Origin: a virus
Taxonomy: Duplodnaviria > Heunggongvirae > Uroviricota > Caudoviricetes
Length of the DNA: 5,697 nucleotides
IMG/VR virus record: IMGVR_UViG_3300026224_000013
Location: 1-5,697 of that record
Strand: one strand, 5' to 3'
The position numbers and the translations under genes are program-made. The notes beneath the pieces are model-generated. The model saw nothing but the letters and a program-made list of their open reading frames with translations, made no database searches and had not been told where the DNA came from. Within the stretch, counting starts at the first letter, position 1; every line of letters starts with the position of its first letter. Shown here one piece after another: positions 3,703 to 3,856 of this stretch.

Positions 3703-3778
3703 GCCGACTTAGCTCAGTAGGTAGAGCAACTGACTTGTAATCAGTAGGTCACCAGTTCGATTCCGGTAGTCGGCACCA
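3703..3778 (+). tRNA. tRNA, anticodon UGU (Thr), 76 nt including encoded CCA
   Basis: Manual cloverleaf: acceptor GCCGACT/AGTCGGC (7 bp), D-arm GCTC/GAGC, anticodon stem ACTGA/TCAGT with loop CTTGTAA (anticodon TGT at 3736-3738), T-loop TTCGATT, discriminator A, CCA. One A-C mismatch in the T-stem. Confidence 0.75.
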
Positions 3779-3781
3779 TAT

Positions 3782-3856
3782 GCGGGTATCGTATAATGGC
3801 TATTACCTCAGCCTTCCAAGCTGATGATGCGGGTTCGATTCCCGCTACCCGCTCCA
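3782..3856 (+). tRNA. tRNA-Gly, anticodon UCC, 75 nt including encoded CCA (near-identical to E. coli glyT except in the acceptor stem)
   Basis: Manual cloverleaf: acceptor GCGGGTA/TACCCGC, anticodon stem TCAGC/GCTGA with loop CTTCCAA (anticodon TCC at 3815-3817), T-arm GCGGG-TTCGATT-CCCGC, discriminator T, CCA. Starts 3 nt after the first tRNA. Confidence 0.85.

Follow-up and report, generated by a model that had tools for sequence, protein, structure and literature searches.

Why would a lambdoid phage carry transfer RNA (tRNA) genes between its late-control and lysis genes, from where would it have obtained them, and are they still able to work? The question is raised by a 5,697-nucleotide stretch of caudoviricete DNA (IMG/VR record IMGVR_UViG_3300026224_000013, positions 1 to 5,697; this whole stretch is hereafter called the window), in which a tRNA-Thr(UGU) gene and a tRNA-Gly(UCC) gene stand in tandem. 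The reading that we consider rather likely is that of a host-derived two-gene tRNA cassette in a lambdoid prophage, which adds to the supply of two scarce tRNAs. According to ARAGORN, the window holds two tRNA genes and no others, each on the plus strand, and Rfam agrees. Against the tRNA family RF00005, whose gathering score is 29 bits, tRNA-Thr scores 73.8 bits (E 2.5e-15) and tRNA-Gly 65.6 bits (E 4.6e-13), each as a full-length match to model positions 1-71. These scores are far beyond chance, and both genes encode canonical elongator tRNAs. The tandem at 3703-3856, its UGU and UCC anticodons, the separation by 3 nt and the CCA encoded in both genes, all proposed in an initial annotation of this DNA, were recovered exactly, the CCA ends and the TAT spacer being read directly in the sequence. 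A permissive Rfam scan of 3300-4450 revealed no further RNA, only sub-threshold matches at chance level, such as STnc100 with 20 bits against a threshold of 47.

The most suspicious feature of the pair is an A-C mismatch in the T-stem of the UGU tRNA, from which it had been proposed that this gene is a divergent or decaying copy. The mismatch is real, being marked in the Rfam alignment at positions 52:62. Nevertheless, direct comparison of the window with the thrU-tyrU-glyT-thrT-tufB region of Escherichia coli K-12 (tRNA genes b3976-b3979) shows that the Thr gene is identical to thrU (b3976) at 76 of 76 positions, A52:C62 included. The mismatch is therefore the host-native state of thrU and no sign of decay. 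The only other stem mismatch of the pair is one D-stem pair in tRNA-Gly, and functional host genes have both. A low covariance-model score or a pseudogene call for the first tRNA had been named as counter-evidence to the gene; ARAGORN calls it, and its score lies well above the gathering score. A pseudogene or decaying copy is ruled out by the high model scores and by mismatches common to functional host genes, and each gene of the pair is intact.

The Gly gene had been described as almost identical to host glyT except in the acceptor stem, which holds: 73 of 75 positions agree, and the only differences are C6U and its partner G67A (linear positions 6 and 66). Since the two changed bases pair with each other, the acceptor stem stays fully paired. 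In E. coli, GlyRS recognizes its tRNA through U73, G1:C72, C2:G71, G3:C70, C35 and C36, and ThrRS through G1:C72, C2:G71, G35 and U36. All of the listed GlyRS elements can be read in the Gly gene of the window. Because the 6:67 pair is no part of the GlyRS identity set and its change is compensated, the altered aminoacylation identity suggested for this tRNA is not to be expected.

Beyond the two genes, the likeness to the host extends to their order and strand, which are those of the thrU-tyrU-glyT-thrT genes without tyrU and a 116-nt spacer, and to a few flanking bases, namely AT before Thr, T after the Thr CCA and AT before Gly. Homology to the host operon stops 1-3 nt from the mature tRNA ends, and nothing else is common to both, the host promoter included. 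The cassette thus differs from the tufB operon genes in the lack of tyrU, of the 116-nt spacer, of thrT and of tufB, in another promoter and a leader hairpin, and in the U6:A67 pair of its Gly gene. From this arrangement we infer that part of the host operon was captured and that tyrU and the spacer were then deleted. Because an intermediate with the host junction between the tyrU spacer and glyT gave 0 matches in viral contigs, this origin by deletion is deduced from the gene order and the five common flanking bases.

The cassette is common and already known. Of 5,426 complete E. coli genomes, 5,421 contain a match to the 154-bp pair, owing to the host operon, and of the 6,579 places found in total about 1,150 exceed one host operon per genome, some of them perhaps partial matches. 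At 99% identity or more, 312 RefSeq E. coli records match the pair, which PGAP annotates as tRNA-Thr and tRNA-Gly; E. coli W carries an identical cassette with the same annotation. The same Thr-Gly pair is annotated in the phages vB_EcoS-683R6, vB_EcoM-606R7 and vB_EcoS-689R5 and in the Stx phage phi467. Other phages carry related arrays: Met-Lys-Thr-Gly in PhiR47_1; Asn, a diverged Thr without an ARAGORN call and Gly in JLK-2012; a thrU scaffold with a UCU anticodon followed by Gly in SerU-LTIIb; and Lys(CUU)-Gly in a Morganella phage. A full-text literature search for an earlier description of the Thr-Gly prophage cassette returned nothing specific.

A pattern scan of IMG/VR, in which any tRNA 3′ end had to be followed within 8 nt by the 5′ part of the window Gly gene, returned at least 119 contigs, a set chosen on the 5′ part of Gly only. 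Thr-Gly is found in at least 41 of these contigs, Met-Lys(UUU)-Thr-Gly, with CAU as the first anticodon, in at least 32 and CAU-Arg(UCU)-Thr-Gly in at least 14, with a tail of other combinations, and the TAT spacer recurs in at least 95 related viral arrays. Among the matches listed, the sequence of thrU is found unchanged in 58 of about 101 Thr(UGU) copies. In most of the others, departures from it are confined to D-loop positions 16 and 20 or to a compensated replacement of C6:G67 by U6:A67. Variation at 52 or 62 was seen in none of the thrU-type phage copies among the matches listed from the 119 contigs. The Gly gene is of the host type in at least 57 contigs and carries U6:A67 in at least 33, and its changes are mostly compensated 6:67 or 5:68 pairs among the matches listed. 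The cassette flanks, on the other hand, reach only 50-75% column identity. Near-invariant tRNAs, compensated stem changes and strongly diverged flanks are consistent with the pattern that purifying selection on functional tRNAs would produce.

As regards the origin of the U6:A67 allele of Gly, a search of 185,579 species-representative genomes found it in one, within a Thr-Gly prophage cassette of Escherichia ruysiae. That this allele is the glyT of another host species is ruled out by this sole match, and it looks like a phage-borne allele. Two further kinds of variant were seen among the arrays. In SerU-LTIIb, the tRNA at 1122-1197 differs from thrU at 5 of 76 positions and has the anticodon UCU instead of UGU, which leads ARAGORN to call it Arg. 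The G35 on which ThrRS relies is lost, and position 20 is C, whereas ArgRS uses A20; anticodon switching would be one possible explanation. In addition, the arrays L063, L075 and L047 (Met-???-Thr-Gly) and L021 (Met-???-Gly) include tRNA-like genes for which ARAGORN reports abnormal anticodon loops, with a 2-nt 'ag' or a 4-nt 'aatt'. These members of otherwise normal arrays could be degraded genes or unusual decoders.

Two conserved elements precede the tRNA genes. A consensus scan predicts a sigma-70-type promoter upstream of tRNA-Thr, with a start near 3646, and in an alignment of 36 unique Thr-Gly cassettes the arrangement TTGNNN-16 nt-TANNNT is kept in 35, and 57-76 nt separate the end of the -10 element from tRNA-Thr. 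Phages differ in which gene precedes the cassette, this being the Q type of the window, other Q types, a DNA methylase or stxB. Because the motif is kept while the upstream gene and the surrounding sequence vary, the predicted promoter appears to travel with the cassette as its own conserved element. Between this promoter and tRNA-Thr, the transcript is predicted to fold into a leader hairpin with an outer stem GGUUCU/AGAACC and an inner G-rich/C-rich stem. When 16 diverse leaders are folded together, RNAalifold predicts a consensus of 9 pairs, and double compensatory changes occur in 4 of these; the pair 26:68, for instance, is GC in 6 sequences, AU in 6 and GU in 4. Possible roles of such a folded leader are in processing, stability or pausing.

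The late promoter PR′ and its terminator were also sought in this interval. The cassette promoter is the only conserved promoter between Q and the tRNAs, and the consensus scan finds no terminator-like site between the Q stop codon and the tRNAs. If the cassette promoter were also PR′, the tRNAs would lie on a promoter-proximal transcript made even without Q. Likewise, the scan finds no terminator directly 3′ of the tRNAs. The nearest strong candidates lie at 4213-4285, of which the hairpin at 4213-4241 is the first, about 360 nt downstream, while the one at 4262-4285 lies just upstream of the TerB-like and holin genes; their link to the cassette is tentative. A different layout is seen in arrays that begin with a CAU tRNA (L020, L026, L018 and similar viral contigs). 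There, the first tRNA directly follows a stringent-type promoter (TTGCAA-17-TATTAT) with a GC-rich discriminator, and about 85 nt upstream of that tRNA stands a strong intrinsic terminator. Because the terminator precedes their promoter, these arrays look insulated from upstream transcription, unlike the window. Morons are autonomous promoter-gene units inserted between phage genes, and the cassette resembles them in a conserved, predicted promoter of its own and in lying behind varied genes. It differs from them in that no clear terminator directly follows the tRNAs and in that its cargo is RNA genes instead of a protein gene.

Taken together, these features suggest how the cassette would work. 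Rightward transcription would start from its own promoter and probably also arrive as Q-modified late read-through. RNase P would cut the precursor at the 5′ end of each tRNA and the 3′ ends would be trimmed, with no need for CCA addition. Since both products carry the identity elements of the host tRNAs, host ThrRS and GlyRS would then be expected to charge them. The result would be an extra supply of two minor single-copy isoacceptors, the sole readers of ACA and GGA, which also read ACG and GGG. Indeed, the UGU tRNA is essential for reading ACA (PMC12445682). This supply would rise as the phage DNA replicates and as phage genes rich in ACA and GGA codons are translated.

Codon usage agrees with this proposal up to a point. 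The host reference was a sample of 42 E. coli W genes (14,938 codons) from one 50-kb region, in which ACA occurs 5.6 times and GGA 6.6 times per 1000 codons. The corresponding values are 18.3 and 14.6 in the eight open reading frames (ORFs) of the window, 18.3 and 16.3 in the early genes of the E. coli W prophage and 11.1 and 15.4 in its late genes. The enrichment of cognate codons, which the initial annotation had proposed to look for, therefore exists, being 2-3 times over the host with p<0.01 in all comparisons, but it is not specific. Phage lambda, which has no tRNA genes, shows 17.3 ACA per 1000 codons in its early genes and 10.1 in its late genes, and for GGA 16.0 and 10.1, respectively. 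Because lambda is nearly the same without tRNAs, the enrichment is not a property of cassette-bearing phages.

Several of these results weigh against the supply of scarce tRNAs as the purpose of the cassette. Apart from the lambda values themselves, ACA in the late genes of the E. coli W prophage is indistinguishable from that in lambda late genes (odds ratio (OR) 1.10, p=0.58). Furthermore, AGA, AGG and AUA are more strongly enriched in the prophage than ACA and GGA, and the cassette of the window holds no tRNA for them. The codon evidence is thus compatible with supply and does not discriminate, which leaves supply plausible but unproven on this count; promoter activity, processing and charging are likewise read from sequence features. 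GGA is moderately higher in the late genes of the E. coli W prophage than in those of lambda (15.4 versus 10.1; OR 1.54, p=0.003). Sister arrays add the anticodons CAU, UCU, UUU and UAA, readers or likely readers of codons ending in A. They would read AGA, AAA, UUA and possibly AUA, of which AGA and AUA are rare in the host sample. Because the sister arrays add further readers of such codons, codon supply gains support from them, and this conventional role is still the most likely one.

A different role has been suggested for other phage tRNAs, and it deserves attention here owing to the identity of the first gene. It can be postulated that the cassette replaces tRNAs that are destroyed or blocked by P2 Old, by AriB of PARIS or by acceptor-stem-reading toxins (toxSAS, GNAT) of competing elements, which we regard as unlikely in the case of the window. 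It has been established that the killing of lambda-infected cells by P2-OLD, the effector of P2-lambda interference, results mainly from cleavage of host tRNA-Thr(UGU) at CNG motifs that pair in the anticodon stem, and that phage Thr(UGU) tRNAs, including that of the lambdoid phage 21, rescue through altered motifs and a shorter stem (PMC12445682). The main targets of AriB are Lys(UUU), Thr(UGU) and Asn(GUU) (PMC12409363), and such targets accompany Thr-Gly in sister arrays, as in the Met-Lys(UUU)-Thr-Gly contigs and in the Asn-Thr-Gly array of JLK-2012. In addition, the toxSAS enzyme FaRel2 selects tRNA-Gly (Gly2 best) and tRNA-Thr through the acceptor-stem pairs 1:72, 2:71, 4:69 and 5:68 (PMC11559606). 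A few related Thr copies carry G42U/U43C or G42C/U43C, like the reported OLD-resistance changes, and the lambda codon-usage control weakens supply as the alternative.

The pair in the window nevertheless lacks the features of a resistant one. In OLD-resistant tRNAs, the CNG motifs at 28-30 and 40-42 are altered and the anticodon stem is shorter (PMC12445682), whereas the Thr gene of the window is the susceptible host tRNA, with C28-U-G30, C40-A-G42 and A37, its anticodon arm ACUGA-CUUGUAA-UCAGU being that of thrU. An OLD-resistant tRNA-Thr is ruled out on this basis. A tRNA resistant to AriB would differ from its host counterpart at or close to the cleavage site U36AAUC|A41 or at recognition positions farther away (PMC12409363). 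The Thr gene keeps this site and is identical to the host target throughout, and Gly(UCC) is named as a substrate of neither nuclease in the available parts of the two reports (PMC12445682, PMC12409363), so that a PARIS-resistant tRNA is likewise rejected. An escape variant of the FaRel2 type was also considered and not found: Gly differs from the host only at 6:67, outside the four determinant pairs, Thr differs nowhere, and FaRel2 originates from a Firmicute (PMC11559606). Because the Thr copy is the susceptible host tRNA and the 6:67 pair of Gly is no FaRel2 determinant, counter-defence could act in this window by re-supply only, and over-expression of host thrU gave little or no protection against P2-OLD (PMC12445682). 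The window gene shares with tRNA-Thr21 of phage 21 and coliphage tRNA-Thr6, both resistant to P2-OLD, the UGU anticodon and a lambdoid carrier, a class excluded by P2 Old. Together with the T5 Lys, Thr and Asn tRNAs that resist PARIS, they were compared with the window as nuclease-resistant phage tRNAs; these have altered CNG motifs and shortened anticodon stems, in contrast to the unaltered host anticodon arm of the window copy.

A broader proposal, that the Thr-Gly cassette and its longer relatives with Lys(UUU), Asn(GUU), Arg(UCU) and CAU form a lambdoid counter-defence kit and not a codon-usage aid, strikes us as somewhat less probable still. Under it, the host-identical copies would be a freshly captured ground state that acts by massive re-supply from replicating phage DNA, and resistant alleles, with changes at Thr 42/43 and at Gly 5:68 and 6:67, would evolve from them. 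Three observations on these positions may be recorded on their own account. The changes at Thr(UGU) 42/43 recur on different backgrounds (JLK-2012 at 2495-2570; L019, L025 and L042; four JLK-like viral contigs) and leave the anticodon stem unpaired at its top, with the CAG motif lost. In the Lys(CUU)-Gly arrays (the Morganella phage, L015, L083, L107 and others), the Gly pair 5:68, one of the FaRel2 acceptor-stem determinants, is changed to U:G or U:A. Finally, the anticodon stem of glyT and of the window Gly gene appears to contain paired CAG (28-30) and CUG (40-42) together with A37, a motif tied to P2-OLD cleavage (PMC12445682).

It could also be argued that the pair is a neutral passenger, a piece of host operon gained by illegitimate recombination and without selected function. 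The identity of Thr and near-identity of Gly to the host genes are compatible with recent capture, and lambda manages without such tRNAs. We nonetheless hold this view to be very improbable. Of the host operon, the cassette retains no more than 1-3 nt beyond the mature tRNA ends. It possesses a conserved promoter of its own and a leader hairpin in which compensatory changes occur, and it recurs in more than 100 viral contigs and, across 5,421 E. coli genomes, at roughly 1,150 additional places, some of them maybe partial. Substitutions in it fall chiefly at variable or compensated positions, in contrast to the strongly diverged flanks, and the host-type junction of the tyrU spacer with glyT occurs in 0 viral contigs.

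Hardly any weight can be given to the interpretation offered at the outset, in which Thr is divergent or decaying and the acceptor-stem change of Gly alters its identity or mimics an integration site. Both the A52:C62 mismatch and the 6:67 difference on which it was built are real, but the former is the wild-type state of thrU and the latter is compensated and outside the GlyRS identity set. As for the integration site, the window itself has no prophage end, and the test was made on E. coli W, where the identical cassette lies about 17 kb from the integrase gene intR, which abuts ttcA. A tRNA-type attachment site or mimic of one is ruled out, the cassette being internal to the late region. Similarly, tRNA-dependent lysogeny (PMC10865867) is unsupported, the cassette being internal and the E. 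coli W prophage being integrated at ttcA and not at a tRNA gene.

The codon-supply cassette favoured here can be placed among the tRNA clusters known from other phages. As had been noted from the outset, it occupies the position between the Q-like gene and the lysis genes typical of lambdoid and Stx phages, of which phi467 has the same pair. The clusters found between Q and the lysis genes in these phages are alike in genomic position and strand. In phi467, the cassette lies downstream of stxAB and not upstream of it. PhiR47_1 and JLK-2012 contain a pair like that of the window, but their arrays have extra tRNAs upstream. The cluster of phage 933W is ileZ-argN-argO. The window has a minimal two-gene version with UGU and UCC, in contrast to this Ile/Arg set. 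The tRNA clusters of T4-type phages also include tRNA-Thr(UGU) and tRNA-Gly(UCC), and the pair has matches of about 85% identity in hundreds of T4-like records. In these phages, however, the two genes are non-adjacent, matching in two pieces about 340 bp apart within a cluster of 5-8 tRNAs, and are clearly diverged from the host genes, and the phages are virulent and have no Q or late-operon context.

The initial observation is confirmed and its interpretation partly supported. Given the hundreds of E. coli genomes and the several phages in which the cassette is already annotated, the gene call itself adds nothing. What is added is the exact relationship to thrU and glyT, the predicted promoter of its own, the structured leader and the distribution with its variants, together with the correction that the A:C mismatch, at first suspicious, is native to the host. 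The cassette deserves to be kept in mind, since P2 Old, the classic anti-lambda exclusion system, was recently shown to act mainly on tRNA-Thr(UGU), which is also among the main targets of PARIS. The thrU copies of lambdoid prophages, mostly host-identical with a few anticodon-stem variants, form a natural data set in which codon supply can be set against defence evasion. With low probability, such cassettes could be the raw material from which lambdoid phages evolve a tRNA-based evasion of defences.

The features of the window are collected in Table 1. Annotation of the ORFs with Pfam identifies it as a lambdoid late-control region, whose architecture is that of prophages at the Rac site and related ones, such as the E. 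coli W prophage. Among complete E. coli genomes, none includes the window in full; the best match covers 73% of it at about 91% identity.

Table 1. Features of the 5,697-nt window, in order of position; the promoter, hairpins and terminators are predictions
Feature	Position	Strand	Basis and remarks
KwaB-like ORF	172-897		241 aa; PF16162, E 9e-17, profile positions 2-180 of 186
hok/sok locus	1136-1460		sok RNA RF01794, 113.2 bits; 51-aa Hok/Gef ORF at 1305-1460, Pfam E 4e-23
DUF1367 gene	1904-2515		Pfam
YbcO gene	2515-2805		Pfam
Q-like antiterminator gene	2802-3338	+	Pfam DUF1133, weaker Phage_antitermQ match; upstream of the tRNAs
Predicted cassette promoter	3612-3639	+	Consensus scan; -35 TTGCGA (3612-3617), 16-nt spacer, -10 TATCAT (3634-3639)
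Predicted leader hairpin	3647-3699	+	Minimum-free-energy fold; ends 3 nt before tRNA-Thr
tRNA-Thr(UGU)	3703-3778	+	ARAGORN, anticodon tgt; Rfam RF00005; CCA encoded; equals host thrU
TAT spacer between the tRNAs	3779-3781	+	Flank comparison with the host operon
tRNA-Gly(UCC)	3782-3856	+	ARAGORN, anticodon tcc; Rfam RF00005; CCA encoded; host glyT with C6:G67 changed to U6:A67
Intrinsic-terminator-like hairpin	4213-4241	+	Consensus scan; 8-pair stem AACCGCCT/AGGCGGTT, then TTTTTTTT (T8 run)
Second terminator-like hairpin	4262-4285	+	Consensus scan; 7-pair stem with 6 G-C pairs, then TTTTT
TerB-like gene	4422-4847		PF05099, E 1e-7; downstream of the tRNAs
Holin gene	5042-5449		Pfam and annotation of related prophages; followed by the start of an endolysin gene

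Some neighbouring regions merit a brief comment. Between tRNA-Gly and the TerB-like gene lie 565 nt (3857-4421) without a convincing ORF, and the part at 3860-4140 shows 60-76% column identity among Thr-Gly cassettes. The two terminator-like hairpins stand at the end of this stretch, whose sole Rfam match is the sub-threshold one to STnc100. Some related prophages share the TerB-like gene, as does JLK-2012, in which its equivalent is annotated tciA; E. coli W lacks it. The complete E. coli genomes that match best contain nothing close to the first 1.1 kb of the window, where the KwaB-like ORF lies; KwaB is a Kiwa defence protein, and its partner KwaA is not visible inside the window. The hok/sok genes next to this region make up a complete type I toxin-antitoxin locus.

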